A stretch of 64,000 nt of DNA from an uncultured Bacteroidales bacterium (GTDB lineage Bacteria > Bacteroidota > Bacteroidia > Bacteroidales > VadinHA17): contig CAVTPT010000002.1 of NCBI GenBank assembly GCA_963736675.1, positions 160,358 through 224,357 of the forward strand, in the 5' to 3' direction. Under the pieces are notes generated by a model. The model was not told the origin of the DNA. It was given only the letters and a program-made list of their open reading frames with translations, and made no database searches. The first letter of the stretch is position 1; every line of letters begins with the position of its first letter. Positions 11,475 to 43,559 of this stretch are shown here, piece after piece. The position numbers and the translations under genes are program-made.

Positions 11475-11519
11475 TGCCAACTGCTAACTAAATGTACCCT
11501 CATGCCTCACGCCTCCTTT

Positions 11520-11735: not shown

Positions 11736-11751
11736 ATTCATATACAAGTAG

Positions 11752-11785
11752 TTCTTCAACTCTGGAACTCTGGAACTCTGGAACT
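11752..11785. repeat. inverted partner array (CTGGAACT) x3 of the 8-bp repeat, after the 16-nt spacer attcatatacaagtag
   Basis: The reverse complement AGTTCCAG matches the GGTTCCAG register of the left array at 7 of 8 positions. The same architecture occurs at 13405-13550. Confidence 0.85.
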
Positions 11786-11810
11786 TTACTGTCAACTACC
11801 AACTATATGT

Positions 11811-11909
11811 ACACTCACTCCTCACGCCTTCCCGAGTTCTCGGGATTAAGTCGCTTCACTCCTCAACACGCCTCATGCCTCACGCCTTTTTCAGCCTCAC
11901 TCCTTCTTG
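11811..11909. repeat. REP-like element copy (CCTTCCCGAGTTCTCGGGATTAAGTCGCTTCACTCCTCAAC + tail)
   Basis: Near-identical to the 13581-13680 copy. Its hairpin is cccga-gttc-tcggg. Abuts the stop of the 11914-13218 gene. Confidence 0.75.
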
Positions 11910-11913
11910 AAAG

Positions 11914-27080: not shown

Positions 27081-28106
27081 TCACAGTTTTTGTGATGATC
27101 TGCGCACTATCAGGCTATGCTTTAATATGATAGTGCTAAGGTTGCCAGTTCCGGTATTATTCAGCTTGTTTATCAGCGAAGTGGCTGCAATCTCTCCGAT
27201 TTCCCTGGCGGGATAATCGACGGTTGTAAGGGTTGGCTGAACAACGTAACTGATGGGCTCGTTATTAAATCCTACCACGGCTATCTCTTCGGGTATCTTA
27301 ATGCCCGCCTTTTCAAGTTCAACAATTATAGCTACTGCCGAGGTGTCGTTAGACGAAAAAATTGCATCCGGACGCGGGTTCATCTTCATAATTTTTTCGG
27401 CGGTTTCAACACCCGCCTGTTCACTCATATCACAGGAAAATACCAGCGACGGATCAAATGTAATGCCATTATCAGCAAGGGCCTGCCTGTATCCTGCAAA
27501 TCGTCCGGAATATACATTTCGCATGAAATTACCCCCAACATGAACGATTCTTCTGCACCCCTGTGTTATCAGGTGCGACGTAGCCTCATAACCTGCTTTT
27601 ATGTTATCAATTACAACACTCATACAATCGTGGCAGTCGGCAACCCTGTCAAAAAAGATTACAGGAATGTTCTTATTAAAAAGAATATTAAAATGGTCCA
27701 GGTTCCGGGTATCGGATGCAAGAGAAACAAGCAATCCATCGACCCTGCTGTTAAAAAGTGTTGAGATACACGAAATCTCTTTCTTTTCGGATTCCTGCGA
27801 CTGGCTGATAATAAGGCCGTAACCATTCTGGGTGGTGATCTTCTCTATCCCGGCTATGGCCGCTGCCATGAAATAACTATTCAGCCTTGGTACCACAACT
27901 CCGATCGTATAGGTTCGTTCCAGCCGGAGATTGCTGGCAAATTTATTGTGCCGGTAGCCCATTTCGCTGGCAGCACTTCTTATTCTTTTTTTCGTCTCCT
28001 GGCTTATGTGAGGATGGTCCTTTAACGCACGGCTAACTGTTGAAGGTGACAGGTTGAGAGCCTTTGCAACATCGTATATCGTTACTTCCCTTTTTACTCC
28101 GGACAT
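27081..28106 (-). CDS. LacI family transcriptional regulator
   Basis: HTH VTIYDVAKALNLSPSTVSRAL plus a periplasmic-binding-fold body. I prefer ATG 28104-28106 over the TTG-extended track ORF (to 28172), which would run through the operator. Confidence 0.85.
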   Translation of the reverse strand: MSGVKREVTIYDVAKALNLSPSTVSRALKDHPHISQETKKRIRSAASEMGYRHNKFASNLRLERTYTIGVVVPRLNSYFMAAAIAGIEKITTQNGYGLIISQSQESEKKEISCISTLFNSRVDGLLVSLASDTRNLDHFNILFNKNIPVIFFDRVADCHDCMSVVIDNIKAGYEATSHLITQGCRRIVHVGGNFMRNVYSGRFAGYRQALADNGITFDPSLVFSCDMSEQAGVETAEKIMKMNPRPDAIFSSNDTSAVAIIVELEKAGIKIPEEIAVVGFNNEPISYVVQPTLTTVDYPAREIGEIAATSLINKLNNTGTGNLSTIILKHSLIVRRSSQKL

Positions 28107-28167
28107 CCCTCTTTTTTTACCAAAAGTAGTAAATAATGACAGAATATTAAAGGAGAAATGAAATTTC

Positions 28168-28181
28168 TGCAACCGATTGCA
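28168..28181. promoter_or_regulatory. LacI-type operator TGCAACCGATTGCA (copy 1)
   Basis: 14-bp near-palindrome with a central CG, matching the generic LacI/GalR pattern TGnAAnCGnTTnCA. Lies in the divergent lacI-GH67 / GH115 intergenic region. The 15 nt CTGCAACCGATTGCA are identical to those at 41918-41932. Confidence 0.6.
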
Positions 28182-28362: not shown

Positions 28363-31326
28363 ATGCGTAAGATCTTATTAATTATAGCGTTAGCGGTATA
28401 TTGCTTACAAATACCTGTTAATGGCCAGCCAACTTTCGGCACTCAACAGTTTATTTCCGGGAAGAAAGTAAAGGGAGGTTTGTCTCTTTCAGTATCAGGT
28501 ATTTCAGCCCCGCTTGTTGTAAGTTCAAAAGAGTGGCCCGGGGTGACAAGAGCTTTTCAGGATCTCAGGAGCGACATCGGAAAGGTTACATCATACCAGC
28601 CGGAAATATTTACTGATAACATTCCGCGATCGAAGGAGATTGTTGTTGCAGGTACTATAGGGAAAAGCGCCCTTATCGATGAGCTTATCAGGGAAAAAAA
28701 GATTGATGCAGAGGGGGTAACCGGTAAATGGGAGTCCTTCCTTATCCAGGTAGTTAAAAATCCTTACAAGGGTGTTAAAAGGGCTCTTGTTATTGCAGGG
28801 AGTGACAAGCGCGGAACCATTTACGGGATATATGAGGTATCGAGGCAGATCGGTGTTTCACCCTGGTACTGGTGGGCCGACGTTCCGGTAAATCATAAAA
28901 AGGAGCTTTATGTAAGTCCTGGCCGTAATGTTTACGGATCTCCGTCAGTCACATACCGCGGTATCTTTCTGAACGATGAGGCACCTGATCTGACTAACTG
29001 GATAAGAGCTAAGTTCGGAAATGTACCTGTCGCCGATGATCCTCCCATGCCGGAGGGGATAGCAAACTATGGCAGAGAATTTTATACAAGGCTTTTTGAG
29101 CTTATGTTACGTCTTAAGGCTAATTATCTCTGGCCAGCCATGTGGAATAATGCTTTCAATGAAGATGATCCTGAGAATCCGAAACTGGCCGATGAGTACG
29201 GCATAGTGATGGGAAATTCGCATCAGGAACCTATGCTGCGTGCTCAGAAAGAGTGGGACCGGAGGTATCAGAAAAAGATAGGAAGCTGGAATTATGCAAA
29301 GTATCCCGATATCGTAGAGGAATTTTGGAGAGAAGGAATAAAGAGAAACAGGAACTATGAAAGTATTGTTACAATTGGCCTGCGTGGGGCAAATGATACT
29401 CCAATGGCACCGGGCGGACCGGAAGCCAATATTGCCCTGCTCGAAAAGATTGTTGGTGTACAGCGAAAAATTCTGGCCGACGAGATAAATCCCGATGTAA
29501 CCAAAGTACCTCAGCTATGGTGCCTTTACAAGGAAGTGCAGGATTACTATAATGCCGGGATGAGGGTCCCGGATGATGTTACCCTGTTATGGGCCGAAGA
29601 TAACTGGGGCAATGTACGAAGGCTCCCCACTGCCGAAGAGAGAAAACGTTCCGGCGGTGCAGGAATCTACTACCATTTTGACTATCACGGCGGGCCAAGA
29701 AGCTACCAGTGGATCAACACAAACCCCATAGCAAAAATATGGGACCAGATGTCGCTGGCAAAACAGTATGGTGCCGACAGGATATGGATAGTGAATGTCG
29801 GGCATTTCAAGGGTTATGAATTCCCGATTGAGTATTTCCTCGACCTTGCATGGAACACCGAAGAACTTACCAGCGACAATATCAATGAATATACAAGGCA
29901 ATGGGCCGAAAGAGAATTCGGGGACCAATATGCAGGAGAAATCGCCGGGATAATGTCTCTTTATACAAAATATAACGGGCGGCGGAAACCGGAACTTCTT
30001 TCCCCGTCAACTTACAGTCTCGTAAACTATAACGAAGCTGAAAAGGTTGTTGCCGACTACAAAAAAATTGCCTCACAGGCTGAAGATATTCTCAGCAGTC
30101 TGCCTGAAGAGAGAAGAGATGCATTTTACCAGCTTGTATTGTTCCCTGCAAAAGCAAGCTCAGTAGTAAATGAGCTATACCTTGCTGCAGGAAAAAACGA
30201 TCTCTACTCGCGACAGGGAAGGGCCAGCACAAACGACATGGCCGACCAGGTCCATTCACTCTTCAGTACCGATACGGCCATGATGGGATACTTTAACCGC
30301 TCTTTTGCAAATGGTAAATGGAACCATTTTATGGATCAGTCGCATCTGGGATATACAAACTGGGCCGATCCTCCGGTAAACAGCCTCAAGGCGATAAAGC
30401 TGAAGCAGATTGAACCTTTATCCGGATCGGTTATGGGTGTGACAATTGAGGGATCAGAGGCAGTCTGGCCGGGGGAAGCCGGTGATGCATCATTACCTCA
30501 GTTTGATGTATTTAACCATCAGACAAGGTATATCGATGTCTTTAACAGGGGCACAATACCATTTGAATTCACGGCATCTGCAGATAAGGATTGGGTAATC
30601 ATCAGGAAGGAAGAAGGACCCTTCGGCAAAGATGAAAGGCTTCTGATATCAGTCGACTGGGAAAGGGTACAATCCGGTAGAAGCCAGAGCAAAATCAGGA
30701 TTTCAGGAACAGGTGTCGATGTGTTTGTCAATGCATATGCATTCAGGCCTCAGGAAATCACACCCGAAACTCTTGATGGCTTTGTTGAAGGTGAAGGTTT
30801 TGTATCTGTCGAAGCTGCGCATTATAGTGCCAATATACCGGCAGGTGTCAGCCGGTGGATTAATATTGAGGATTACGGACATACATTATCCGGAATGAGG
30901 GCATCTGCTCCTGCCGACAATCCTGCTGCTGTAGCGGGGAAAGATGCCCCGTGCCTTGAGTATAACATGTATCTGTTCAGCCAGGGCTCTTTTGAAGTCA
31001 CTTCAGTTTTCTCGCCGGCACTTAATTTTATGCCCGGGAGAGGACTTCAGTACGCAATCTCATTTGACGATCAGGCTCCACAGGTGATAACTCTTGTTCC
31101 GGCAGACTACAACGCGCAGAACGGGAACAGGGACTGGGAAAAATCGGTAAGCGACAATGCCAGGTTCAGCAAAACCATTCATAAAATAGAATCCCCGGGA
31201 TATCATAAAATGAAAATATGGATGATAGATCCCGGGATTGTCATTCAGAAGATAATGGTCAATACCGGAGGATTGAAAGAGAGCTATCTTGGTCCTCCGG
31301 AGAGCTACTTTAACATCCGGAAATGA
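28363..31326 (+). CDS. GH115 xylan alpha-(1,2)-glucuronidase
   Basis: 987 aa. The RGTIYGIYEVSRQIGVSPWYWWADVP motif is typical of GH115. Confidence 0.8.
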   Translation: MRKILLIIALAVYCLQIPVNGQPTFGTQQFISGKKVKGGLSLSVSGISAPLVVSSKEWPGVTRAFQDLRSDIGKVTSYQPEIFTDNIPRSKEIVVAGTIGKSALIDELIREKKIDAEGVTGKWESFLIQVVKNPYKGVKRALVIAGSDKRGTIYGIYEVSRQIGVSPWYWWADVPVNHKKELYVSPGRNVYGSPSVTYRGIFLNDEAPDLTNWIRAKFGNVPVADDPPMPEGIANYGREFYTRLFELMLRLKANYLWPAMWNNAFNEDDPENPKLADEYGIVMGNSHQEPMLRAQKEWDRRYQKKIGSWNYAKYPDIVEEFWREGIKRNRNYESIVTIGLRGANDTPMAPGGPEANIALLEKIVGVQRKILADEINPDVTKVPQLWCLYKEVQDYYNAGMRVPDDVTLLWAEDNWGNVRRLPTAEERKRSGGAGIYYHFDYHGGPRSYQWINTNPIAKIWDQMSLAKQYGADRIWIVNVGHFKGYEFPIEYFLDLAWNTEELTSDNINEYTRQWAEREFGDQYAGEIAGIMSLYTKYNGRRKPELLSPSTYSLVNYNEAEKVVADYKKIASQAEDILSSLPEERRDAFYQLVLFPAKASSVVNELYLAAGKNDLYSRQGRASTNDMADQVHSLFSTDTAMMGYFNRSFANGKWNHFMDQSHLGYTNWADPPVNSLKAIKLKQIEPLSGSVMGVTIEGSEAVWPGEAGDASLPQFDVFNHQTRYIDVFNRGTIPFEFTASADKDWVIIRKEEGPFGKDERLLISVDWERVQSGRSQSKIRISGTGVDVFVNAYAFRPQEITPETLDGFVEGEGFVSVEAAHYSANIPAGVSRWINIEDYGHTLSGMRASAPADNPAAVAGKDAPCLEYNMYLFSQGSFEVTSVFSPALNFMPGRGLQYAISFDDQAPQVITLVPADYNAQNGNRDWEKSVSDNARFSKTIHKIESPGYHKMKIWMIDPGIVIQKIMVNTGGLKESYLGPPESYFNIRK

Positions 31327-31404: not shown

Positions 31405-32670
31405 ATGAAAAGAGACTCTTCAAATCTGATCAGGTTAGCTGCAGCATCTGTTTTCAGCTTTTTAAGCCTGGCAGGCTTCCCCCAGAAGATTGCCACCCTG
31501 GAGGTTGATCTTCCTGAACCTGCTTTCGGACTCGAAATTCCCGTGAGCATTAATCTTGATGAGGTGACGTATGTGACTGACTCCCTTTTAGCATTATTTG
31601 AAGTTAAAGGCAGTACCCGTACGCCTGTATCGTTTCAGATAGAACAGGGTGATCAGAGAAGGTTGCACTGGCTGGTGGAAACGGGAAGCGTAGCCGGTGA
31701 AAAACATACTTTTGAACTTGTTCAGGGAAAAGTAAAACAGGCTGAAGTAATAAAAGCAACTGTAAACGATGGAACTCTGACAATCCATAATGGAGATCAG
31801 AATCTTCTCAGGTATTATTTTAAGACACTTTATCCTCCGGAAGGTGTTGATACTGCCTACCGCCGGAGCGGTTTTATTCATCCTTTATGGGCACCGAAAG
31901 GCCAGGAGCTGACAAGAATACAGCCACCCGATCATTATCATCATTATGACATCTGGAATCCCTGGACACATGTTGCCTACGAAGGAGATACTATTGATTT
32001 CTGGAATATAAATTCAAGGCAGGGCACTGTGCGCTTTGCCAACTTCGCCTCCGTTGAGAACGGATCTGTCTTTTCTGAATTCGGAGCTATGCATGAACAC
32101 GTTGTATTCAGAAAGAATGCTCCCGAAAAAGTTGCCATGAACGAACTTCATTCTGTAAGGGTATATCGTCCGCAGAAAAGCCAGGATTACTATATAGTCG
32201 ATTTTAATTTCAGTATGAACTGCGCTGATGAGAGTCCTGTAAAACTTCTGGAATACCGTTACGCCGGATTGGGCTGGAGGACGACAGAAAAATGGGACAA
32301 TAAGAACAGTATGGTACTTACCTCAGAAGGGAAGACAAGGAAAGATGCAGATGGCAGTACAGCACGCTGGTGCATTGTCCAGGGAGAGATTGACGATGAC
32401 TATGCCGGTGTTGTCATGATGTCGTTCCCGACTAATTACAATTTCCCGGAACCTTTGCGTATATGGCCGGAGAATCAGTATAACAGGGGTGATATGTTCG
32501 CAAACTTCTGCCCGACGAAGGATAAAGACTGGCTGTTACAGCCCCGTCGCAACTACACTTTAAAATACAGGTTCCTGGTATATAATGGCCGTATGGATAA
32601 AGATAAGGCTGAAAGTGCCTGGCAATATTTCGCTTATCCTCCTGAAATAACCATAAAAAAAACAAAATAA
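31405..32670 (+). CDS. PmoA-like / DUF6807 family protein (secreted)
   Basis: The HPLWAP...PPDHYHHYDIWNPW motif is typical of the 'methane oxygenase PmoA' (DUF6807) Pfam family. Function unknown. Confidence 0.55.
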   Translation: MKRDSSNLIRLAAASVFSFLSLAGFPQKIATLEVDLPEPAFGLEIPVSINLDEVTYVTDSLLALFEVKGSTRTPVSFQIEQGDQRRLHWLVETGSVAGEKHTFELVQGKVKQAEVIKATVNDGTLTIHNGDQNLLRYYFKTLYPPEGVDTAYRRSGFIHPLWAPKGQELTRIQPPDHYHHYDIWNPWTHVAYEGDTIDFWNINSRQGTVRFANFASVENGSVFSEFGAMHEHVVFRKNAPEKVAMNELHSVRVYRPQKSQDYYIVDFNFSMNCADESPVKLLEYRYAGLGWRTTEKWDNKNSMVLTSEGKTRKDADGSTARWCIVQGEIDDDYAGVVMMSFPTNYNFPEPLRIWPENQYNRGDMFANFCPTKDKDWLLQPRRNYTLKYRFLVYNGRMDKDKAESAWQYFAYPPEITIKKTK

Positions 32671-32907: not shown

Positions 32908-34284
32908 ATGAAAAGAAGAAAATTTATTACTAATTCCATTACCGCCGCAGCGGGGACTATAATTATTCCCACAATAATTCCTTCATCAGTTATGGGCAGG
33001 AATCCGCCCAGCGACAGGATCAACATAGGATGGATCGGTTGTGGCAGGCAGGGGACAGGTGATATTTCAGGTACGATGAGGTTTGATTCTGCTATTGTTG
33101 TCGCTGCCTCCGATGTCGATTCAAACAGAATGGCAATTGGGAAACAATTTGTTGAAAGGTACTATGCCAGGCAGACCGGAAAAAGTGACTATGTAAATGT
33201 GAAAACTTTTGGTGACTACAAGGAGATGCTCCTTGATAAGTCAATAGATGCTGTTATGATAACAACTCCCGATCACTGGCATTCACAGCCGGCCATTGAA
33301 GCTGCCCTTGCAGGTAAAGATATCTACCTTGAGAAGCCGACATCACTTACCATCACAGAGGGAAGATTATTAAGCGACGTCATAAAACGTACGAAGGTTA
33401 TACTCCAGGTTGGCACCCAGCAGCGTTCTAGTCCCCAGTGGAGAATAGCCGCCGAGCTTGTAAGAAACGGCAGGATCGGGAAGCTTCACACGGTTAAAAT
33501 AGGACTCCCGGGAGATCCTTCCGGACCAGAAGCACCGGAGATGCCGGTACCCGGGAACCTGAACTATGATATGTGGCTGGGATCGACCCCTGAGGTTTAC
33601 TATACCGAAACACGTGTGCATCCGCAGAATAGTATCAACGATCGCCCGGGATGGCTGAGGTGCGAACAGTTCGGAGCTGGTATGATAACCGGATGGGGAC
33701 AACACCATTTCGATTCAGCGGCATGGGGCATGGATACTGAACTTACCGGCCCTATATCGGTTGAAGCTGTTGCACAGTTCCCCAAATCAGGTTTGTGGGA
33801 TGTTCATGGGGACTTTATGTCAAAAGCCGAGTATAAGAATGGCATTACACTGCTGACAAGTGGTGGCTATCCTAATGGCGTAAGATATGAGGGTACCGAA
33901 GGCTGGATTTTTGTTACCCGTGGGGCATATACTGCTACTGCCAGCGATCCCGTAGTTGTTGACAGCAATGCCAAAGCGCTTGATGCAAGTGATCCGAAGA
34001 TCCTTCAGTCAGTTATCAGTGAAAATGAAACCCATCTGTATGTGAGTGAAAATCAACAGGGCAACTGGCTCGACTGCATCAAGTCGCGTAAAGAACCTGT
34101 TTCTCCGGTCGAAATTGGTCACCGCGCATGTACCGTCTGTCTCGTAACACACATTGCCATGAAGCTTGGCAGAAAGCTGAACTGGGATCCCGATAAGGAA
34201 AGATTCACTGACGACGACGAAGCAAACTCAATGCTTTCACGTCCACAGAGAGCTCCCTACGGGACCAATTATATAAAGATGTAA
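32908..34284 (+). CDS. Gfo/Idh/MocA family oxidoreductase with twin-arginine-type signal
   Basis: MKRRKFITNSITAAAG leader, GWIGCGRQG Rossmann motif and an EKP motif. Confidence 0.85.
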   Translation: MKRRKFITNSITAAAGTIIIPTIIPSSVMGRNPPSDRINIGWIGCGRQGTGDISGTMRFDSAIVVAASDVDSNRMAIGKQFVERYYARQTGKSDYVNVKTFGDYKEMLLDKSIDAVMITTPDHWHSQPAIEAALAGKDIYLEKPTSLTITEGRLLSDVIKRTKVILQVGTQQRSSPQWRIAAELVRNGRIGKLHTVKIGLPGDPSGPEAPEMPVPGNLNYDMWLGSTPEVYYTETRVHPQNSINDRPGWLRCEQFGAGMITGWGQHHFDSAAWGMDTELTGPISVEAVAQFPKSGLWDVHGDFMSKAEYKNGITLLTSGGYPNGVRYEGTEGWIFVTRGAYTATASDPVVVDSNAKALDASDPKILQSVISENETHLYVSENQQGNWLDCIKSRKEPVSPVEIGHRACTVCLVTHIAMKLGRKLNWDPDKERFTDDDEANSMLSRPQRAPYGTNYIKM

Positions 34285-34293: not shown

Positions 34294-35196
34294 ATGAAGA
34301 CAATACTTATAAAATGCCTCCTGATTGCTGGAGGCATTATTATTGCTTTACCAGTAAAAGGGGTAAAGATAAATGCCGAAAAAGTCGGATCGAAGATAAA
34401 TATCACAATAGATGGTAAGTATTTTACCAGCTATATCTTCTCAACTGATGAAAAATATCCCTTTTTCTATCCGGTAAACGGACCCCTTTCAGGCGGCTCT
34501 GTCACTTCAATGCGTAATGCTGTCTACCCTCATCATACATCACTATTTTTTGGTTGCGATATGGTTAACGGAGGTAATTACTGGCAGGAGGGGCTTGAAC
34601 GCGGAAGGATAATTTCTGTAAATGCCCGTGTGGAGAAAGAGGGGGGCGATACTGTAATCATAACAGATGAATGCATCTGGAGCCGACCGGGAGCACTCTC
34701 TCCCATTAAGGATACGAGAAGAATTATTATTACTGCGCCATCTTCAAGTTTAACCCGGATAGATTTCGATATAACCATGGAGATGCTGATGGATGTCCAA
34801 ATCTCAAAAACCAATCATTCTCTTTTCAGTGCCAGGATGGCAGCAGACCTTGCTGTCACAAACGGAGGGACAATGATCAATGCGGAAGGGGCAAAAAGTG
34901 AAAAGGAGACTTTCGGCAAGAACTCGGCCTGGATTGATTTCTATGGCAAAAGGGGTGCAATTACTGAGGGACTGGCAATTTTACAGCATCCGTCCAACCC
35001 CTGGTTCCCCTCACCCTGGTTTACCAGGGACTACGGGTTTATGTCACCTACCCCTATGTACTGGCCTGAAAACGGGGAAGTGACTTTTCTGAAGAAAGGA
35101 AGCAGTCTTAATCTCCGGTACAGGGTACTTGTACATGCCGGAAATAGTGATGAAGCCCGGATAAGTGAGGCATTTGACAAATATTCGAAAGAATAG
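34294..35196 (+). CDS. PmoA-like / DUF6807 family protein (second, shorter)
   Basis: Signal peptide. FFYPVNGP ... HHTSLFFG ... NYWQE pattern of DUF6807. Confidence 0.55.
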   Translation: MKTILIKCLLIAGGIIIALPVKGVKINAEKVGSKINITIDGKYFTSYIFSTDEKYPFFYPVNGPLSGGSVTSMRNAVYPHHTSLFFGCDMVNGGNYWQEGLERGRIISVNARVEKEGGDTVIITDECIWSRPGALSPIKDTRRIIITAPSSSLTRIDFDITMEMLMDVQISKTNHSLFSARMAADLAVTNGGTMINAEGAKSEKETFGKNSAWIDFYGKRGAITEGLAILQHPSNPWFPSPWFTRDYGFMSPTPMYWPENGEVTFLKKGSSLNLRYRVLVHAGNSDEARISEAFDKYSKE

Positions 35197-35320: not shown

Positions 35321-35360
35321 AAGAGGCTGTTCTCACCTCTTGAGAAAGCCTCTTTAAATT
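35321..35360. terminator. bidirectional terminator between convergent genes
   Basis: aagaggct ... agcctctt 8-bp stem, flanked by A-rich and T-rich runs. Confidence 0.55.
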
Positions 35361-35378: not shown

Positions 35379-38063
35379 TTACTGAACCGTAACGAGCGCT
35401 TTAGTAACCGAAGCCTCTTTTGCAGTTCCGTCAAGCTGAGGTTGATGACCACCAACAGCGACAGTAAACTGCCCCGGCAGAATTACTCTTTCATTTTTGT
35501 CGTCAATAACAGAAAAAGCATCTGAAGCAACACGGAAGGAAAGGGTTCTGGTTTCTCCCGGTAACAGATTAACCCTGTCAAAAGCTTTAAGTGTACGTAA
35601 AGCAACCGGGTACTTTGAACCAAGATTTGATACATAGAGCTGAACCACTTCATCGCCGGCCATTTTCCCTGTATTCTTTACATTTACTTTTACAGTTACC
35701 TCATCACCGGCCTTTATTTTCTTACTTACTTTCATCTTGCTGTATTCGAAAGTTGTATAGCTTAATCCGTATCCGAATGGGAATAAAGGATCTCCGGTAA
35801 AATATCTGTATGTACGGTTTTTCATGTTATAGTCCTCGAAATCCGGGAGATCGTCAACCGACTTGTAAAATGTTACAGGCAGACGGCCGGCAGGATTATA
35901 ATCACCGAACAGGATATCAGCTATAGCGGCTCCGCCTTCCTGACCCGGATACCATGCCTCCAGGATAGCAGGAATGTTCTCCTTTTCCCAGTTTATTGCA
36001 ATGGCACTTCCATTAAGCAGTACCAGTACTACCGGCTTGCCGGTGGCATGAATAGCCTTGATAAGGTCCTGCTGTACCGGGGGCAGGTCGATTTTGGTTC
36101 TGTCACCGCCCTTGAACCCTTCTACTGCAACGTTCATCTCCTCCCCTTCCAGTCGAGGGGTTATACCCATGCACATAATTACAACATCAGCCTGTCTGGC
36201 AGCATTTAATGCCTCGTTTTTCATGTTTTCGAAGTATTGTTTCTCAGGTAATGCCCAGAGTAGTTGAACCTGGGCTTCTCCGGAAGTCTCGGAAGCTTCA
36301 ACCCTGAAGTTGTATTTTTTTCCGGCTTCAAGAACAACCGGTTCTGATCTTCTCATCCTTGGATTTCTGTTCTCATCCATCGAAAACGAAGGAGTACTGA
36401 TCAGAAGTGAGTCGCCCATGAAGATCCTGACTTTGCATGAAGAAACGAACCCGATCTGATATGGGCCCGTGAATTCCGGAACAATCTCTCCTGTCCATCT
36501 GATACCGAAATTGTCAACATCCATATCGTCTGTTGGTGCATTTTCTCCCCACTGCATGTCAATTTTGGTGTCGACCCGTGTGAACATGGCATCACCAGTA
36601 AAATCACGGTTGTTAAAATATTCACCTTTTAATCCTCCCCGGGTGCCTTCATTATAAAGGATATTTGAAGGAATTACCTCAAAAACAGGCATGCCGGCGG
36701 CCCATTCGCTACCCCTGGCATAGATAACTTTTGACTTGCCTTCCAGTTTCTCCCTTATCCCTCTGAGGGGTGTTACAGGGTCTGAAGGTGTCCCGTTATA
36801 ATTACCAAGCAGTACAAAATCCTCATCCGAATTGGGGCCAATAACAGCAACGGTGCCGATATCTTTTTTAAGAGGAAGAATGTTATTTTCATTCTTAAGC
36901 AGTACCATTGATTTCAGGGCTGTCTCTTTTGCAAGCAATTTATTTTCCTTGCTGTCAACAACACTGTAAGGGATACTTGTATATTTTACCATTTCGGGAG
37001 GATCAAACATGCCCAACCTGAACCGGGCAATGAACAGCCTTTTTACGGCGGTATCAATTTCCTCTTCGGTAATTAGTTTTTTGCTGACTGCCTCCTTAAG
37101 GTTCCTGTAAACTGATCCGCATTCAAGGTCAGTCCCTGCCCTGACGCTCAGGGAGGCTGCCTCTGCTGGAGTCTGGACAACCTTATGTCCGGCATATATG
37201 TCATTTATTGCCCCGCAGTCGGAAACAATAAATCCGTCAAATCCCCACTCGGTGCGCAGGATACCATCAAGAAGCGATTCGCCTCCGCAGCATGTTACAC
37301 CATTGTAACGGTTATACGCGCACATCACCGAGTATGCTTTTCCCTCTTTTATTCCCATTTCAAACTGAGGGAGATAGGTCTCCATGAAATCCCGCTGATC
37401 AGTGATTGCATCAAAAGAGTGCCTGCCCTGCTCCGGTCCGCTGTGGACGACAAAATGCTTAATGGTTGCTATTGTTTTAAAATATCGGGGATCGTCACCC
37501 TGAAGGCCTCTGATAAACTGCACCCCCAGGCGGCCCGTAAGGAAGGGATCTTCTCCGTAAGTTTCCTGGCCTCTCCCCCAGCGTGGATCCCTGAAAATAT
37601 TAATATTGGGGGTCCAATAGGTAAGTCCCTGGTATCTGGCCCTGGAATCGTTTCTGACAAATTCATGATGCTTTGCCCTTGCCTCATCGGAAATTGCCGT
37701 TGAGACACGGAGTATAAGATCCTCATCCCAGGTAGCGCCCATACCGACAGCCTGGGGGAAAACTGTGGCCAACCCTGCCCGGCCCACACCATGAAGACAC
37801 TCGTTCCACCAGTTATAAACCGGGACACCAAGCCGGTCGATAGCAGGTGCAACATCCAGCATCTGTCCTATTTTTTCGTCGAGGGTCATTCTCGAAACAA
37901 TGTCATCAGCCCGTTGCCCAACGCTAAGATCCGGATTCAGGAAAGGAAACTGATAGGTTTTCTGAGCCATGGATACGATTCCCGGCGATGTCATTAAAAG
38001 TACTGTAAGAACCGATCTGAGGAGCACATTCAATGACCGGCTCATCATTTTTTTATTTTTCAT
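35379..38063 (-). CDS. GH3 beta-glucosidase/beta-xylosidase with PA14 insertion
   Basis: GFIVSDCGA catalytic nucleophile region, a GH3 C-terminal domain, and a PA14-like segment (GEYFNNRDFTGDAMFTRVDTKIDMQW). Confidence 0.9.
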   Translation of the reverse strand: MKNKKMMSRSLNVLLRSVLTVLLMTSPGIVSMAQKTYQFPFLNPDLSVGQRADDIVSRMTLDEKIGQMLDVAPAIDRLGVPVYNWWNECLHGVGRAGLATVFPQAVGMGATWDEDLILRVSTAISDEARAKHHEFVRNDSRARYQGLTYWTPNINIFRDPRWGRGQETYGEDPFLTGRLGVQFIRGLQGDDPRYFKTIATIKHFVVHSGPEQGRHSFDAITDQRDFMETYLPQFEMGIKEGKAYSVMCAYNRYNGVTCCGGESLLDGILRTEWGFDGFIVSDCGAINDIYAGHKVVQTPAEAASLSVRAGTDLECGSVYRNLKEAVSKKLITEEEIDTAVKRLFIARFRLGMFDPPEMVKYTSIPYSVVDSKENKLLAKETALKSMVLLKNENNILPLKKDIGTVAVIGPNSDEDFVLLGNYNGTPSDPVTPLRGIREKLEGKSKVIYARGSEWAAGMPVFEVIPSNILYNEGTRGGLKGEYFNNRDFTGDAMFTRVDTKIDMQWGENAPTDDMDVDNFGIRWTGEIVPEFTGPYQIGFVSSCKVRIFMGDSLLISTPSFSMDENRNPRMRRSEPVVLEAGKKYNFRVEASETSGEAQVQLLWALPEKQYFENMKNEALNAARQADVVIMCMGITPRLEGEEMNVAVEGFKGGDRTKIDLPPVQQDLIKAIHATGKPVVLVLLNGSAIAINWEKENIPAILEAWYPGQEGGAAIADILFGDYNPAGRLPVTFYKSVDDLPDFEDYNMKNRTYRYFTGDPLFPFGYGLSYTTFEYSKMKVSKKIKAGDEVTVKVNVKNTGKMAGDEVVQLYVSNLGSKYPVALRTLKAFDRVNLLPGETRTLSFRVASDAFSVIDDKNERVILPGQFTVAVGGHQPQLDGTAKEASVTKALVTVQ

Positions 38064-38122
38064 TTGTTTATGGATTATATATTAAAAAGCAGTTTTTTCC
38101 CTTATTGCATTATAAAATTAAA

Positions 38123-38827
38123 CTATTTCCCGGCAACATCCTTGTTCCTTCTGTAAATACAATTGGTGTTATCACATAAATTGCAGGCATAAGGATTCAT
38201 TCTGACATTAGTGCCTATGCCGATTATCCCACTGACCGATTTAACAGGCTGCATAAGTGCGGAATCAGTCAGCCTGATGCCACAATAATTACCGGGGATA
38301 AGACTGAACAATTTATGTTGCTCCGAAACATCCCAGCTGCAATACCCCGGACTGAACCTGTTGGTAATATTAAATCCCTCTTCTTCCATTGACTGTTTCA
38401 GCCGGGCCTGCAATACGTCGGCTGCAGCTTCAACTATTTCACTCCCGACAACATCATATACATATGCTTTCAGGAAGTCCTTCCCCCCGACTGAATTTCC
38501 GGCCCTGAGGCCAATCTCCTCCCCTGCCGTGCAAAGAAATACTGCCAGCGATTCTGATTTTTTTATCTGATTGAATATTATCCTCCCGACCTGAAATACA
38601 ACACTCCCGGTCTGTATAGATTTGCTCTTATTATCAGGATTTATGTCGTCAAATATGTAATACACACCTTTAATGGCACATATTGTTGCAGCTTCCTCAA
38701 GTACTTCCCTTATAAGAGAGCTTACAAGTGCACGGTCCTCTCCCTCCTTGTACCCCATTACACTTTCAATCCGGGGCACATTCAGGTTAAGCTGATCAAA
38801 GCTGAATGAGAAGGTTACTTCGTGCAT
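38123..38827 (-). CDS. stand-alone MetH-type AdoMet-binding reactivation domain protein (Met_synt_B12-like)
   Basis: SPGYCSWDVSEQHKLFSLI...GIRLTDSALMQPVKSVSGIIG aligns with the E. coli MetH activation-domain core (PAPGYPACPEHTEK...L.ES..M.P..SVSG). Confidence 0.65.
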   Translation of the reverse strand: MHEVTFSFSFDQLNLNVPRIESVMGYKEGEDRALVSSLIREVLEEAATICAIKGVYYIFDDINPDNKSKSIQTGSVVFQVGRIIFNQIKKSESLAVFLCTAGEEIGLRAGNSVGGKDFLKAYVYDVVGSEIVEAAADVLQARLKQSMEEEGFNITNRFSPGYCSWDVSEQHKLFSLIPGNYCGIRLTDSALMQPVKSVSGIIGIGTNVRMNPYACNLCDNTNCIYRRNKDVAGK

Positions 38828-40257
38828 AAACCTGATTCTGTTACAATTCTTTCAACGATTGATTCCCATCCCAATGTCATAATATGTATCCCGTTGACGG
38901 CTTTTTTCCGTTTCACCGAATCGATAATTTCGAGAGCAATCTGCACACCTTCTTCCGGTGCCGACTCTCCTGCTTTTTCCATTCTGTGGAGAATATTTTC
39001 AGGAAGACTCACCCCGGGAACGCTGTTATGAAGGTACCGGGCAATTTTCAGGCTTTTCAGAGGTGCAAGGCCCACCAGGATATACACCTTGTCAAGTATA
39101 TTTCTTTTATCGAGTTGCTCAAACCACTGGTCAAGCCGGTCGGGTTCAAATATCAGGTTTGTCTGAAAAAACTGAGCCCCGGCATTTATCTTCTTATGAT
39201 CCTTAATTGCCTGTAATACAGGATCGGACGCAAATGGCGACGTCGCAGCCCCCAGGAAAAAATGCGGGGGATCTTTCATTTTTCTTCCGTCGAGATATGT
39301 GCCTTCATCTCTCATTTTTCTCAGTATCCATAACATCTGAACTGAATCGAGGTCAACTATATTCATCGAGCTTTCCGGGGCAGGACCAACCTTCGGGCTG
39401 TCGCCGGTTATACACAGAATATTTTTTATCCCTATACCGTTGATCCCTGCAACATCGGATTGAAGTCCGCATCTTGAAGTATCGCGGGCGGCAATCTGAA
39501 GGACAGGTTCAGCATTCAGGTCGCAGGCTATTTTTGAACAGGCAACACTTGACATTTTTGGCTTTGCTGAAGATGAATCGGTAAAGTTTATCGCTGTAGA
39601 GAAAGGTTTTACCATCTCAATATCCCTTATCAGCCTGTCTGTGTTTGCTCCCAGGGGAGGTGTTACTTCAGTGGCAACTACGAACGCGCCGCTTTTCAAC
39701 CGCTTTTCGAGGCCCGAAACAGGTTCGGTATAACCGGGAGGATGATAATCAGAATCCCCATTCCACCAGTCAGGCTGCCGTACACTCCTAAAAACAGAAT
39801 CCCATACAATGGTCCTCTTCTCTTTATCTTTTGATACGATCGCTGAAAAAAATCTGCCTGCCCCGGCTTTTCTTACCTCACTCACAACATCTCCCCACGT
39901 CGCAGTGCCTGTTTTGTTCCAGTCGAGCGGAGGCAGAACTTCGAGAAGCTTTTCCTCCGTACCGGTTTTAAGAGCTCTTTTATAAATGCAGTACCAGATA
40001 CATTTCCGGGTTTCATCCACATAGCAGTTTTTGGAAGGAGTAATCCCGCCGCATGGCCCGTTTCTCAATCCTTTCGGGCACTCCATGGGACAAATGAAGG
40101 CTGTCTCCTGAAGAAGGCAGTTCCCGCACATCCGGCATCCGAACAGGGGTCCTTTTATGATAAGCTCTGTTTTTGCAAGAACCCGTCGTCCAAAGGTCTC
40201 CTTTTTAAACGGGTAAAATGCGGGTTGCCATCTGCGGGCAGGTTTTATCCCTGACAT
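38815..40257 (-). CDS. methylenetetrahydrofolate reductase with N-terminal MTHFR_C/MetV-type zinc-ribbon domain (MetV-MetF fusion)
   Basis: The N-terminus CRMCGNCLL..FICPMECPKGLRNGPCGG matches the MetV/MTHFR_C signature. The remainder is a MetF TIM-barrel (ITGDSP, FFQTNLIF). Confidence 0.75.
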   Translation of the reverse strand: MSGIKPARRWQPAFYPFKKETFGRRVLAKTELIIKGPLFGCRMCGNCLLQETAFICPMECPKGLRNGPCGGITPSKNCYVDETRKCIWYCIYKRALKTGTEEKLLEVLPPLDWNKTGTATWGDVVSEVRKAGAGRFFSAIVSKDKEKRTIVWDSVFRSVRQPDWWNGDSDYHPPGYTEPVSGLEKRLKSGAFVVATEVTPPLGANTDRLIRDIEMVKPFSTAINFTDSSSAKPKMSSVACSKIACDLNAEPVLQIAARDTSRCGLQSDVAGINGIGIKNILCITGDSPKVGPAPESSMNIVDLDSVQMLWILRKMRDEGTYLDGRKMKDPPHFFLGAATSPFASDPVLQAIKDHKKINAGAQFFQTNLIFEPDRLDQWFEQLDKRNILDKVYILVGLAPLKSLKIARYLHNSVPGVSLPENILHRMEKAGESAPEEGVQIALEIIDSVKRKKAVNGIHIMTLGWESIVERIVTESGLCTK

Positions 40258-40296
40258 GAATGTATCTCTATTCTGATATTATGTTCTTTTCACTAA

Positions 40297-41136
40297 CTAC
40301 ATACGGCTCTGATAGTACTCAATAAACCTCACGGCAAAATCATCCCTGCCAAGTATCAGATCAGATGCCCTCACAGCAGCCGTTATCTTTTCGGGATTGG
40401 CTATGAGACACGTCAGCCCGTTAAGTATGGAAATTGCCATAAATGAAGAATTCAGAGCCTCCCTGCCGGGTAAGCCGAACGATATATTACTGGCTCCCAG
40501 GGTTATATTATGTCCCAGTTTATCATGTACCAGCTTAATAGTCCGCATAGTCACCAGACAAGCCTGGGGATCAGCACTGACAGCCATTGCCAGGGGATCT
40601 ATAACAACATCTTCAGCTTTGATCCCTGCAGCAATAGCTCTTTCAATTATTTTCTCTGCTATCTTAAGTCTCTTTTCCGGATCATGAGTTATCCCTTCAT
40701 CATCCATGCACAATCCAATAATGGCCGCATTAAATTCCCTGGCTAACGGAAGCAGTACTTTCATGGAGGCTTCTTCCCCGTTTACTGAATTGATAAGGCA
40801 TTTCCCCACGACTACTTTAAGGGCAGCTTCTATTGCCTTCGGATTCGGGGAATCAAGGCAAAGAGGTATGTCGAACCTGTCCTGAATTGCCTTAACCGTT
40901 TCGGGAAGAAGTCTGACATCATCAACCCCGGGATATCCGACATTTACATCAAGTACATCAGCACCTGCTTTTATCTGGCTTTCTGCCAGTTCGAGAACGT
41001 AATCAAATTTTCCTTCCTGAAGAGTGCTTACCAGCTTTTTCCTCCTGGTTGGATTAATTGATTCCCCGATAATGACAACAGGTCCTTCAGTGTCAATAAC
41101 TACTTCGCTCTCTTTTCCCCTCAGAATTGTCCTCAT
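40297..41136 (-). CDS. methyltetrahydrofolate:corrinoid methyltransferase (pterin-binding, AcsE/MtgA/MetH-pterin-domain-like)
   Basis: Pterin_bind motifs IIGESINPT, DVLDVNVG, LINSV and GASNISFGLPGR. Confidence 0.8.
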   Translation of the reverse strand: MRTILRGKESEVVIDTEGPVVIIGESINPTRRKKLVSTLQEGKFDYVLELAESQIKAGADVLDVNVGYPGVDDVRLLPETVKAIQDRFDIPLCLDSPNPKAIEAALKVVVGKCLINSVNGEEASMKVLLPLAREFNAAIIGLCMDDEGITHDPEKRLKIAEKIIERAIAAGIKAEDVVIDPLAMAVSADPQACLVTMRTIKLVHDKLGHNITLGASNISFGLPGREALNSSFMAISILNGLTCLIANPEKITAAVRASDLILGRDDFAVRFIEYYQSRM

Positions 41137-41151
41137 TCCGTAAATTATTAA

Positions 41152-41820
41152 TTATGAAACCATTTGTTTCAGATAATTTACTGCACCCTGCGGGTCGGGT
41201 GAATAAAAATCAGCTCCTATTTTTTTGCAGTATTCCATCGTAACCGGAGCTCCTCCGACAAGGATCGTTGATCCGGGATATTTTGATTTTATTGCAACAA
41301 CGGAATTCTTCATATTTTCCATTGTTGTTGTTAGTAAAGCAGAAAGACCGACAACAGCATCAGGGTTCTCCTCAATGGCTTTAAGGAACCTGTCGGTTCC
41401 CACATCAACGCCAAGATCAATAACCTCCCAGCCGCCGCCTTCAACCATCATCGAGACAAGGTTTTTGCCAATATCATGAAGATCACCGGATACAGTACCA
41501 ATAATGAATTTACCTTTTCGCTTTGTCTCTCCCGACTGGAAAAATGGCTTCAGATGTTTCATCGCGCTATTCATTGCTTTTGCTGCCATCAGCATCTGGG
41601 GCACATATATTATCTTTCTGCTGAACTTGTCGCCAACGACTGCCATTGCCGGGATCAGTGCGTTCTCAAGAATATCATCAGGTTTAATCCCTGCCTCAAG
41701 AGCCTGTTTTGTAAACTCATCAGCTCCCTCCTGCCCCTTCATATCAGGCGGATAAGGAGATAACTTATCTGTTTTGCCATACTCAACGCACCTGGCTATC
41801 TTTTCAAGAATGTCACTCAT
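41152..41820 (-). CDS. corrinoid (cobalamin-binding) protein, MtbC/MtaC/MetH-B12-domain-like
   Basis: B12-cap helix bundle plus DxHxxG (GDLHDIGKN), SxL (SALLTTT) and GG (VGGAPV) base-off/His-on signature. Confidence 0.85.
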   Translation of the reverse strand: MSDILEKIARCVEYGKTDKLSPYPPDMKGQEGADEFTKQALEAGIKPDDILENALIPAMAVVGDKFSRKIIYVPQMLMAAKAMNSAMKHLKPFFQSGETKRKGKFIIGTVSGDLHDIGKNLVSMMVEGGGWEVIDLGVDVGTDRFLKAIEENPDAVVGLSALLTTTMENMKNSVVAIKSKYPGSTILVGGAPVTMEYCKKIGADFYSPDPQGAVNYLKQMVS

Positions 41821-41893
41821 TGATCAATAAAATTTGAAAGGTTCATATTAATAATCAGGCTTTAAAATTAGAAATATCGGCATGAATCACTGT

Positions 41894-41901
41894 CAAAATT
41901 A
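41894..41901 (-). promoter_or_regulatory. candidate -7 promoter box (TAATTTTG on the minus strand) for the corrinoid operon
   Basis: Exact TAnnTTTG match 74 nt upstream of the start codon. The LacI-type operator lies 18-31 nt further upstream, at the expected -33 position. Confidence 0.4.
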
Positions 41902-41918
41902 TAAATTATATTTATTCC

Positions 41919-41932
41919 TGCAACCGATTGCA
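41919..41932. promoter_or_regulatory. LacI-type operator TGCAACCGATTGCA (copy 2)
   Basis: Identical to 28168-28181, with 15 nt identical when the preceding C is included. About 100 nt from both divergent start codons (41820 and 42033). Confidence 0.6.
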
Positions 41933-42032: not shown

Positions 42033-43559
42033 ATGAAATCAATCTCTGTTATCTTTTTTTTACTGATTTTTAATGCAGGACTGGCACAGAATATTCCTGC
42101 CGGTATCTTCGAATCCTCAGCCGATATTGGTAACCCCCGGATTAAAGGATCTTCCCTGTACGACGCTACTGACCAGAGTTATACTCTTAAGGGAGGCGGT
42201 TACAATATCTGGTTCGAAAGAGATGAATTCCATTATCTGTACAAAAAGATAAAAGGGGACTTTATCATAACGGCAAATTTCGAATTGACCGGGAAGGGGA
42301 CTGAACCTCACAGGAAAACCGGATGGATGTTAAGAGCCTCGACAGAGGAGAACTCAGCGCACATGTCAGCAGTTCTCCATGGCGATGGACTAACTGTAAT
42401 GCAATGGCGTAATTTTAATGGAGCACCGATGAGAGATCCTCAGGATGAATTATTTGCACCGGGATCAGATTATAATGTCATCCAGCTTGAAAGGGCCGGA
42501 AAAATAATAGTGATGAGGGCAGCCCGGGAAGCCGGCCCCCTTGAGACTATAGGATCTTATGAAATGATGACAATGCCGGATGAGATCCTTGCAGGGCTTT
42601 TTATCTGCTCGCATAACCCTGATGTCTCCGAAGAGGTGAGGATCTGGAATGTAAGGATTGACAATCCGGTCAGCAACAGTTATAATCCTTCTGTTGAGGG
42701 CTACCTGGGCTGCAGGCTTGAAACAATGAATGTTTTTGACGGTAAGAGGAGAGTGATCTTTGAAAAAAACAGCAGGTTTGAAGCTCCAAACTGGATGCCC
42801 GACGGCAAAAAACTGCTGTTCAACATGGACGGGCTATTATGGAAAATACCAATCGAAGGAGGTATCCCCGAACAACTTAATACAGGATTTGCAAACAGGA
42901 ATAATAACGATCATGGCATATCATGGAACGGGAAGCTTCTTGCCATAAGTCATCAGCGCGAAGGGATGCCCGGAGGAGGCTCAACTGTATATTACCTGCC
43001 TCTGAAAGGTGGAAAGCCAAAACTCATTTCTGAAGAGACTCCTTCCTACTGGCATGGATGGGCTCCGAACAATAAAGAAGTAATATATATCGGGAACCGG
43101 CAGGGAGATGAAGGATACAATATATTCAGAAATACCCTTAAGGGCAACAAAGAGGTCCGTCTCACCAATGTTAAAGCAAACGAACGTGCAGATGGCTGCG
43201 AGTATTCTCCTGATGGAAAATATATTTACTATAATGGCAGTCATACCGGTCACATGCAGATATGGAGGATGAAGCCTGACGGCACAGAACGCGAACAGGT
43301 AACCTTCGACGGGAATAATAACTGGTTCCCTCATATTTCTCCGGATGGGAAATGGTTAGTATTCATTGCATTTCCTCCGGATATAGAATTGAATTCCCAT
43401 CCTTCATACAAGAGGGTGACTCTGAATATGATGCCTGCTTCAGGAGGAGCCTCAAAGGTTATTGCATACCTCTATGGCGGGCAGGGCACAATTAATGTAC
43501 CTTCATGGTCTCCCGACAGCCAGCAGATTGCTTTTGTTAGCAATTCAGGAAAATATTAA
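42033..43559 (+). CDS. secreted protein: ConA/LamG-like (DUF1349-like) N-domain + TolB-type PD40 beta-propeller
   Basis: Signal peptide. Repeated SPDGK / WSPD PD40 motifs. Paralog of 50645-52162. Confidence 0.55.
   Translation: MKSISVIFFLLIFNAGLAQNIPAGIFESSADIGNPRIKGSSLYDATDQSYTLKGGGYNIWFERDEFHYLYKKIKGDFIITANFELTGKGTEPHRKTGWMLRASTEENSAHMSAVLHGDGLTVMQWRNFNGAPMRDPQDELFAPGSDYNVIQLERAGKIIVMRAAREAGPLETIGSYEMMTMPDEILAGLFICSHNPDVSEEVRIWNVRIDNPVSNSYNPSVEGYLGCRLETMNVFDGKRRVIFEKNSRFEAPNWMPDGKKLLFNMDGLLWKIPIEGGIPEQLNTGFANRNNNDHGISWNGKLLAISHQREGMPGGGSTVYYLPLKGGKPKLISEETPSYWHGWAPNNKEVIYIGNRQGDEGYNIFRNTLKGNKEVRLTNVKANERADGCEYSPDGKYIYYNGSHTGHMQIWRMKPDGTEREQVTFDGNNNWFPHISPDGKWLVFIAFPPDIELNSHPSYKRVTLNMMPASGGASKVIAYLYGGQGTINVPSWSPDSQQIAFVSNSGKY

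Follow-up and report, generated by a model that had tools for sequence, protein, structure and literature searches.

In the 64,000-nucleotide stretch of DNA from an uncultured Bacteroidales bacterium analysed here (contig CAVTPT010000002.1; hereafter the window), four tightly packed genes encode a corrinoid protein (CP), a methyl-tetrahydrofolate:corrinoid methyltransferase (MeTr), a methylene-tetrahydrofolate reductase (MetVF) and a stand-alone reactivation protein of the MetH type (Act), and this module shares an operator palindrome with neighbouring genes for the breakdown of glucuronoxylan. Our reading is that it supplies the generic half of a corrinoid-dependent demethylation pathway, the half that accepts the methyl group, and that it would be repressed by a LacI-family regulator together with the genes for glucuronoxylan side chains. 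The methyl group would most likely come from the 4-O-methyl ether of 4-O-methyl-glucuronate (MeGlcA), and the substrate methyltransferase (MT I) is presumably encoded elsewhere; to this reading as a whole we assign a probability of roughly 0.45.

Hardwood and cereal xylans carry MeGlcA as their main acidic side chain, and on reasoning alone its O-4 methyl ether would block the aldolase step of the standard uronate pathway. In the proposed pathway MeGlcA, the likeliest donor, would be freed in the periplasm by GH67/GH115 and then imported, and the methyl group that arrives with glucuronoxylan would be transferred by MT I to the Co(I) form of CP. MeTr would pass the methyl on to tetrahydrofolate (THF), and MetVF would convert methyl-THF into methylene-THF, which could continue to formate through FolD and formate-THF ligase (Fhs) or enter biosynthesis. 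Cobalt that has been oxidised to Co(II) would be returned to methyl-Co(III) by the TM0269-like Act through reductive methylation with AdoMet, with a four-cysteine (Cys4) site as the probable point of electron entry. The genes concerned are the following:

41152-41820, minus strand: CP; Pfam PF02310 (84.5 bits) and PF02607 (68.8 bits)
40297-41136, minus strand: MeTr, methyl-THF:corrinoid methyltransferase of the MT II/MeTr type; PF00809 (104.4 bits)
38815-40257, minus strand: MetVF, a MetV-MetF fusion, methylene-THF reductase; PF12225 (84.1 bits) and PF02219 (100.6 bits)
38123-38827, minus strand: Act, stand-alone MetH-type AdoMet reactivation protein, TM0269-like; PF02965 (42.6 bits, partial match)
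35379-38063, minus strand: GH3, beta-xylosidase-like (Xyl3A-like, with a PA14 insert and a signal peptide), last gene of the operon; Pfam and NCBIfam
35321-35341, minus strand: terminator-like hairpin followed by a T-run, after GH3

Given the tight spacing (15 nt between CP and MeTr, 39 nt between MeTr and MetVF, a 13-nt overlap of MetVF and Act, and 59 nt between Act and GH3), the lack of a predicted hairpin in the Act-GH3 gap and the position of the sole terminator-like site of the minus strand after GH3 (35341-35321), CP, MeTr, MetVF, Act and GH3 would most simply form one transcription unit. A preliminary description of this DNA had given the same coordinates, strands and spacings and had likewise seen no hairpin in that gap, and all of these points were reproduced when the open reading frames (ORFs) were checked again.

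The domains that had been predicted for the four proteins were each matched by Pfam. CP consists of a helical cap and a Rossmann domain, carries the B12 signature D-L-H-D-I-G, S-A-L-L and G-G, and is 34% identical to residues 679-853 of Escherichia coli MetH in an alignment in which GDxHDIGKN is kept; its nearest NCBIfam models are the corrinoid proteins MtgC, MtbC and MtaC, every score being under the cut-off. MeTr scores above the cut-off of NCBIfam PRK07535 (268.6 bits vs 259), and all motifs of the MetH pterin module are conserved in its alignment to E. coli MetH. MetVF is a single polypeptide of 480 aa, with the Cys-rich MetV part (PF12225) at residues 35-114 and the MetF part (PF02219) at residues 184-476, while GH3 matches PF00933, PF01915, PF07691 and PF14310. 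The set, in which PF02574 is lacking, thus fits the earlier summary of the module as MetH minus its homocysteine domain plus a methylene-THF reductase. Signal peptides were found on GH67, GH115, GH3, a GFO-family oxidoreductase, DUF6807 proteins and a PD40 protein of the locus, and on none of the four module proteins, so that the substrates of any demethylation by the module would be free MeGlcA or small aldouronates after their import.

Act required a closer description. A phmmer search of PDB sequences gave Thermotoga maritima TM0269 (1J6R) as the sole match (E = 1e-4), and with an AlphaFold2 model (pLDDT 82) the top Foldseek hit was again 1J6R (TM-scores 0.72/0.85), followed by MetH reactivation domains. 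Compared with E. coli MetH, RxxPGY and LT(D/E)SxxMxPxxSVSG are kept, and conservation across 140 diverse representatives ranges from 92 to 100% at the AdoMet motif R157-x3-G161-Y162. In the same representatives four cysteines are conserved at about 100%, namely C163, directly after RxxxGY, and C215, C218 and C223, which form a C-terminal C-x2-C-x4-C arrangement. Both TM0269 and E. coli MetH apparently lack the conserved cysteines, at least as regards C99 and C163, where TM0269 has Ala and Gly; the C-terminal cysteines fall outside the alignment. The Cys4 motif suggests a Zn or Fe-S site of a kind not described for MetH reactivation domains, and Act is read as a putative reductive activase that depends on AdoMet and bears an extra metal or Fe-S site. 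Of the earlier assignment of Act as a MetH-like domain, the reactivation fold and motif therefore stand, while the protein is of the TM0269 type with an extra Cys4 motif and not simply a MetH domain. The family comprises 484 clusters at 50% identity with E <=1e-30, and the 150 best-scoring representatives are all stand-alone, none having a fusion partner.

We also considered Act itself as the donor:corrinoid methyltransferase, i.e., as the MT I that the module lacks, and rejected it as our main explanation. The AdoMet motif and the reactivation fold are kept, a RACo-type activase fragment is present where Act is absent (sister locus L084), which fits a role of Act as the activase and not as MT I, and two URO-D methyltransferases coexist with Act in another sister locus (L088). 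Such a role for the Cys4-bearing protein is accordingly improbable.

Operator, regulon and linkage to xylan genes

The following elements were recognised in the regulatory regions of the locus:

41919-41932: LacI-type operator palindrome, copy 1, 14 nt, TGCAACCGATTGCA, in the divergent intergenic region of CP and PD40, 99 nt upstream of the CP start
28168-28181: operator palindrome, copy 2, exact, between the LacI gene and GH115
41894-41901, minus strand: putative -7 promoter element TAATTTTG, read from the sequence, 18 nt downstream of the CP-proximal operator

The two exact copies of the palindrome TGCAAYCGRTTGCA bracket the locus and are the only ones in the window, against about 0.001 expected by our own calculation, and relaxing the search to three mismatches added window matches at chance level only. 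The element TAATTTTG fits TAnnTTTG, which we take to be the Bacteroidetes -7 consensus. The 80 related genome loci, 1.34 Mb in all, hold 39 exact copies of the palindrome vs 0.02 expected. The genes directly downstream of these operators are CP (18 cases), LacI (13), PD40 (13), GH115 (6), SusC (6) and the first DUF6807 gene (DUF6807a; 6), with GH10, xylB and GFO one time apiece. In the 18 loci concerned the palindrome lies 60-140 nt upstream of CP, and in loci with SusC-SusD ahead of the corrinoid genes in the same orientation it is found before SusC instead. Neither a SAM nor a cobalamin riboswitch was found in the 64-kb window. Since the operator is common to the module and the glucuronoxylan genes and no riboswitch accompanies it there, the module is assigned, from sequence, to a LacI regulon of the sugar type that also takes in the alpha-glucuronidases, the LacI protein being the presumed binder. 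Co-regulation with the glucuronoxylan genes had been proposed from the predicted site, and both its exact repetition in the window and its conservation in relatives support this. The cis regulon includes neither an inner-membrane transporter nor a glucuronate isomerase, and further members of the regulon must therefore lie elsewhere.

A different, conserved promoter-region element of about 55 nt, containing AATTATTnTnTAATTTTGGnTGCAAACAnAAAATATTGAATTATTTTGGTG, was observed upstream of CP in loci without the LacI operator (L005, L012, L013, L014, L032, L034, L041, L054, L060 and L078; related loci are denoted by L numbers). It resembles a duplicated -7-type box and may be an alternative way of regulating the module together with xylBA.

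The related loci were obtained by scanning a genome collection with Act, which has 2693 homologues at E <=0.001, the nearest non-self one being about 62% identical. The resulting 80 loci come nearly all from uncultured Bacteroidales metagenome-assembled genomes (MAGs) of fen, peat, soil, lake sediment and digesters. Neighbours were counted within 10 kb of the module in 81 loci carrying Act, and loci with a flank of >=8 kb on one side (n=55) were regarded as well-flanked. CP accompanies Act in 74/81 loci, MeTr in 69/81 and MetVF in 64/81, and because the three recur together with Act the four-gene block cannot be put down to chance. The numbers of loci in which other neighbours occur are as follows:

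PD40: 45
xylB: 43
xylA: 39
GFO: 38
second DUF6807 gene (DUF6807b): 30
LacI: 20
SDR: 18
SusC: 17
GH115: 14
GH3: 13

GH67, ManD, CE15 and GH10 are each present in several loci, and GH3 follows Act in at least 6 related loci. The preliminary description had left room for the module never being linked to xylan genes in relatives; what we found instead are xylan, xylose or GFO/DUF6807 genes in 49 of the 55 well-flanked loci, while GH115, GH67 or CE15 are present in 15/55. The gene order around the module varies widely, and the linkage is therefore not one frozen arrangement. The order LacI-(GH67)-SDR-ManD-xylB-xylA recurs among relatives, and SusC-SusD-(GH10)-CP-MeTr-(MetVF)-Act is found in seven loci (L002, L008, L030, L064, L065, L075 and L172). 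A sub-type without MetVF, SusC-SusD-(TIG-TIG-GH10)-CP-MeTr-Act (L064, L065, L066, L074, L075, L079, L081 and L172), faces a SASA-type esterase, GH115, GH3 or a GH30-like protein, CE15, GH10 and a GPH transporter. In L172 the CP start lies 1 nt past the end of GH10, within the SusC-SusD operon.

These observations also bear on the view that there is no functional link at all and that a lineage-specific housekeeping cluster merely lies beside a hot spot of xylan genes. All genome loci do come from one Bacteroidales lineage, and the PD40-AcylT-DAGK-HAD flank is apparently unrelated to xylan. Against this, the exact operator is common to LacI, GH115 and SusC, the linkage survives many rearrangements, CP is translationally coupled to GH10 in L172, and more distant Act homologues lie again in glycoside-hydrolase clusters, so that we consider this view very improbable.

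Sister loci and the direction of methyl transfer

Several loci combine the module with other contents. L010 carries GH123, DUF5107, a URO-D protein (419 aa), a divergent AraC, CP, MeTr, MetVF, Act, a second URO-D protein (368 aa, MtaA/CmuA-like) and formate-THF ligase, and its MAG, fen_982, also holds the xylan-type locus L022, the two module copies being 62-79% identical. L084 contains URO-D, GH38, a sugar-porter transporter of the major facilitator superfamily (MFS), a RACo fragment, AraC, CP, MeTr, MetVF, URO-D and Fhs, and no Act. L088 comprises AraC, CP, URO-D, a sugar porter, URO-D and Act, followed by GH5, GH9, esterases, GH94 and GH78. The sugar porters of these sister loci show PESPRWL and PETKG motifs, and Fhs directly follows the module in L010, L019, L028, L035 and L084. 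Among distant Act homologues (34-41% identical), one lies between GH141/GH2 and GH31/GH78 (L168), and another, accompanied by a corrinoid protein, is flanked by GH65 genes on a contig of 62% GC (L170); two Ignavibacteria-type Act loci have no glycan context. In L168 a stand-alone PF02574 gene (6653-8250; homocysteine S-methyltransferase-type, with a Zn-Cys motif) stands immediately upstream of the Act homologue, and the cluster also has SSF transporter and NikR/CbiM genes. Corrinoid sets that recur in carbohydrate loci, often with folate one-carbon enzymes, fit the catabolism of methyl groups better than methionine biosynthesis.

The alternative of a split cobalamin-dependent methionine synthase has to be weighed here. 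In such a system, MetVF would make methyl-THF, MeTr would load CP, an unlinked homocysteine-binding protein (PF02574 or core MetE/MesB) would make methionine, and Act would reactivate CP as TM0269 does for Thermotoga MetH. The domain set is exactly that of MetH minus the homocysteine module, plus MetF; Act is homologous to TM0269 and the MetH reactivation domains in sequence and fold, with RxxxGY kept; split and corrinoid-protein-dependent core synthases are known (PMC7857596); the distant Act of L168 adjoins a PF02574 protein; and the Ignavibacteria-type Act genes are found in a housekeeping context. However, the operator is of a sugar type and common to GH115, GH67 and SusC, with neither riboswitch present, the module is embedded in SusC-SusD-GH10 operons, one MAG (fen_982) holds two diverged copies, and the sister loci carry formate-THF ligase, URO-D methyltransferases and sugar transporters. 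In addition, no homocysteine-binding domain was found in the window or in 82 loci (1.4 Mb), a tblastn search with E. coli MetH recovered the B12 and pterin parts only, and even L168 lies inside a glycoside-hydrolase cluster. Taken together, the sequence evidence favours a catabolic methyl-processing module, and a split methionine synthase appears unlikely.

Another possibility is that the flow is reductive, i.e., that the module carries methylene-THF to methyl-corrinoid during pentose fermentation, as an electron sink or as a supply for methylation, similar to a truncated Wood-Ljungdahl methyl branch. Fhs, MetVF, the MeTr-type enzyme and the corrinoid protein are indeed parts of a methyl branch, and in 17 loci the module runs straight into xylB-xylA. 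On the other hand, both the window and the loci lack CODH/ACS and any methyl acceptor, the corrinoid protein belongs to the MtgC/MtaC type and is not a CoFeSP, and nothing evident could serve as the terminal acceptor that a sink needs. Such anabolic use is in our view quite improbable, and we infer a flow from donor to folate as described above.

If the module accepts methyl groups, its donor could still be another methyl compound that comes along with xylan, such as aryl methyl ethers (from arabinoxylan ferulate or lignin fragments freed by CE15) or methanol, with MT I elsewhere. These are the established substrates of systems composed of MT I, CP and MT II (PMC3727330), the related loci also encode CE15 glucuronoyl esterases and a CE1-like esterase, and the habitats (peat, fen, soil, digesters) are rich in lignocellulose. 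Nevertheless, the specific operator targets and neighbours are alpha-glucuronidases (GH115, GH67) and not feruloyl esterases, the sister loci have sugar porters and not aromatic-acid transporters, and neither MtaB nor an aryl-type MT I is found nearby. A donor of this kind therefore seems unlikely to us, about as much so as a split synthase, and the 4-O-methyl ether of MeGlcA would be the better candidate.

MT I itself was sought in several ways. Among window ORFs of >=150 aa, proteins of the PF02574, URO-D, MttB or MtaB type are absent, in agreement with the preliminary description, which had seen no MT I beside the module, and the clustered ORFs of the 82 loci, frequent and unique neighbours alike, yielded no candidate. 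Within 10 kb of the module, proteins of the URO-D family were seen only in the sister loci L010, L084 and L088 and in no xylan-type locus; tblastn with those of L010 found them in L010 only. Related to this, a family of URO-D-like proteins of 419 aa was observed (L010, 4312-5571; L088, 7240-8496; 59% identity between the two; further in loci L089-L167), which often adjoins sugar-porter MFS transporters, GFO oxidoreductases with a twin-arginine (TAT) signal, GH2, GH29 and sulfatases, and only sometimes a corrinoid protein, RACo or an MtaA-like URO-D protein. This family was tried as a general sugar MT I and rejected after a metagenome scan, in which a corrinoid protein was found in only 2/18 well-flanked loci and a sugar porter in 6/18. 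An unlinked MT I is possible.

Several points weigh against demethylation of MeGlcA as the role of the module. In about 80 loci of xylan-type relatives no MT I was found within 10 kb, and a xylan locus that retains the generic parts without the specific one would be odd. Within the related loci, no operator copies precede cytoplasmic genes of unassigned function. About 17 of these loci have neither LacI nor operator, and Act runs straight into xylB-xylA, so that the tie there is to xylose use in general and not specifically to methyl-glucuronate. All 80 genome loci belong to a single lineage of Bacteroidales, in which synteny on the other side of the module (PD40-AcylT-DAGK-HAD) is conserved, and part of the linkage is therefore inherited. 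The adjacency of a distant Act to a PF02574 homocysteine-type methyltransferase in L168 keeps a methionine-synthase-like acceptor in play. The literature search found no precedent for the corrinoid-dependent cleavage of an alkyl (sugar) methyl ether. To our knowledge there is none. Finally, on reasoning alone, ManD and the SDR could in principle remove the methyl as methanol through beta-elimination without B12; elimination of methanol from MeGlcA, or from reduced MeGlcA via a ManD-type dehydratase, is chemically plausible, and with such a B12-independent fate the donor of the module would be something else.

Relation to known methyl-transfer systems

The individual parts of the module are already known, i.e., an MtxC-type corrinoid protein, an MT II of the MeTr/MtgA type, MetVF and a TM0269-type activase. 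As far as our literature search shows, what is new is their combination, the AdoMet-type activase in place of RACE, and the placement under a xylan LacI operator or in operons of polysaccharide-utilisation loci (PULs). The module falls within neither of the two nearest classes, as it lacks the MT I of a complete O-demethylase and the homocysteine module of MetH.

The corrinoid O-demethylases known from acetogens and Desulfitobacterium, with three or four components (MT I, corrinoid protein, MT II and an activating enzyme), and the glycine-betaine system MtgABC likewise have an MtxC-type corrinoid protein (cap and Rossmann domains) and a pterin-binding MT II, which in MtgA and the D. hafniense MT II moves the methyl from methyl-Co(III) to THF, the type of transfer predicted here. 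Like the O-demethylase clusters, the module would be a substrate-induced gene cluster. Unlike the module, the O-demethylases include MT I and depend on the ATP-dependent activase RACE/RamA, whereas the activase here is an AdoMet domain of the MetH/TM0269 type with the Cys4 motif; MetVF lies within the operon here and not in the O-demethylase clusters; the module is situated in a LacI-controlled glucuronoxylan locus or PUL of fermentative Bacteroidales; and the presumed donor is an alkyl (sugar) ether, in contrast to the aryl ether or amine of known corrinoid systems.

Homology to MetH and its split forms (Thermotoga TM0268 + TM0269; GapMind / Price et al.) extends over the pterin, B12 and reactivation modules, signature motifs included, and Act is a separate polypeptide like TM0269. 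In contrast, MetH has a homocysteine module, for which there is none in cis here; TM0269 adjoins a MetH lacking the reactivation domain, while Act adjoins separate CP, MeTr and MetVF genes; and both regulation and genomic context are related to carbohydrates here. The methyl branch of the Wood-Ljungdahl pathway (Fhs, FolD, MetVF, AcsE) shares with the module a reductase of the MetV-MetF type and a methyltransferase like AcsE, and Fhs adjoins the module in sister loci; on the other hand, CoFeSP and CODH/ACS are absent here, and the corrinoid carrier is a small protein of the MtxC type. The URO-D clusters of Kountz and Balskus (PMC10418091) were also considered and set aside, being Firmicutes systems proposed for methyl-S/Se metabolism and unrelated to the context of the module.

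The known route of sugar demethylation is that of aerobic P450 enzymes only (PMC6292453). If our reading is true, the module would follow the same logic as the P450 6-O-methyl-galactose demethylase of aerobic marine bacteria (Reisky et al. 2018; PMC6292453), with a demethylase inside a polysaccharide-utilisation locus; however, the P450 depends on O2 and yields formaldehyde, whereas an O2-independent transfer of the methyl to cobalt and folate is proposed here. The preliminary description held that the fate of the methyl ether in anaerobes is not established. A 2025 paper treats anaerobic sugar demethylation as unsolved and writes of methyl-galactose demethylation in anaerobes that it "has not been elucidated yet" (PMC12316285). 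Our full-text literature search found no work linking corrinoid enzymes to xylan or methylated sugars.

The wider proposition is that anaerobic Bacteroidota possess a new class of O2-independent corrinoid carbohydrate O-demethylases in glycan loci, whose xylan version would remove the 4-O-methyl of MeGlcA to the folate pool; we put it forward tentatively, at somewhat less than even odds. The module provides a concrete, cloneable gene set with which O2-independent sugar demethylation can be tested. If true, alkyl/sugar methyl ethers would be a new substrate class for corrinoid methyltransferases, the breakdown of hemicellulose in peat, soil and digesters would be tied to the folate one-carbon pool, formate and hydrogen, a B12 requirement of xylan degraders would be explained, and Act would represent a new subfamily of AdoMet-dependent activases with a metal site.

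Neighbouring genes and other observations

Domain searches bore out the xylan genes previously listed around the module (GH67, GH115, GH3, SDR, ManD, xylAB). Further features of the locus are:

18344-19669, minus strand: xylA
19761-21239, minus strand: xylB
21375-22583, minus strand: ManD, above the NCBIfam equivalog cut-off
22729-23625, minus strand: insertion sequence (IS) integrase (rve)
24093-24830, minus strand: SDR
24893-27052, minus strand: GH67
27081-28172, minus strand: LacI-family regulator, with PF00356 and Peripla_BP domains
28363-31326, plus strand: GH115, exported
31405-32670, plus strand: first DUF6807 protein (DUF6807a), exported
32908-34284, plus strand: GFO-family oxidoreductase with a TAT signal, exported
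34294-35196, plus strand: second DUF6807 protein, exported
42033-43559, plus strand: PD40/TolB-like beta-propeller protein, exported, divergent from the operator region

The true start of LacI is probably a Met 22 codons into the ORF, near 28106. The IS element splits SDR from ManD, while relatives have an unbroken LacI-(GH67)-SDR-ManD-xylB-xylA order, and the insertion may be polar on ManD and xylBA. No SusC/SusD pair adjoins the module in the window.

The GFO oxidoreductase, flanked by the two DUF6807 (PmoA-like) proteins within the same LacI regulon, is the commonest convergent neighbour of the module; it resembles the BT_2158 glycoside 3-dehydrogenase family with an NCBIfam score under the cut-off, and the set may constitute a periplasmic oxidative route. 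The PD40 protein has a paralogue at 50645-52162, both being exported proteins in which a TolB-like beta-propeller is combined with an unassigned domain of about 200 aa at the N-terminus; among the neighbours of the module the PD40 protein is the most conserved. PDB sequence searches with the PD40 and DUF6807 proteins were uninformative, the best match of the former being the uncharacterised Atu1656.

Elsewhere in the window, a cluster at 1194-8386 encodes an ARMT1-like phosphatase, three P-loop ATPases (two with 4Fe-4S ferredoxin inserts), a TonB-dependent receptor and a nucleoside-hydrolase-like domain fused to FmdE; as a cobalamin riboswitch was not detected, a role of this cluster in B12 uptake is not indicated. 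Beside a tRNA gene (9249-9321), two paralogous DUF5128/DUF4934 six-bladed beta-propellers are encoded at 9848-13218, in a stretch of 35-36% GC vs about 43% elsewhere, which may be an acquired segment. Finally, at 52192-55415 an ORF of 743 aa joins a KdgT-type permease with SBD_N and NBD_C, the two domains of a four-carbon acid-sugar kinase, an unusual transporter-kinase fusion that overlaps the start of the gene for a PdxA-like dehydrogenase.

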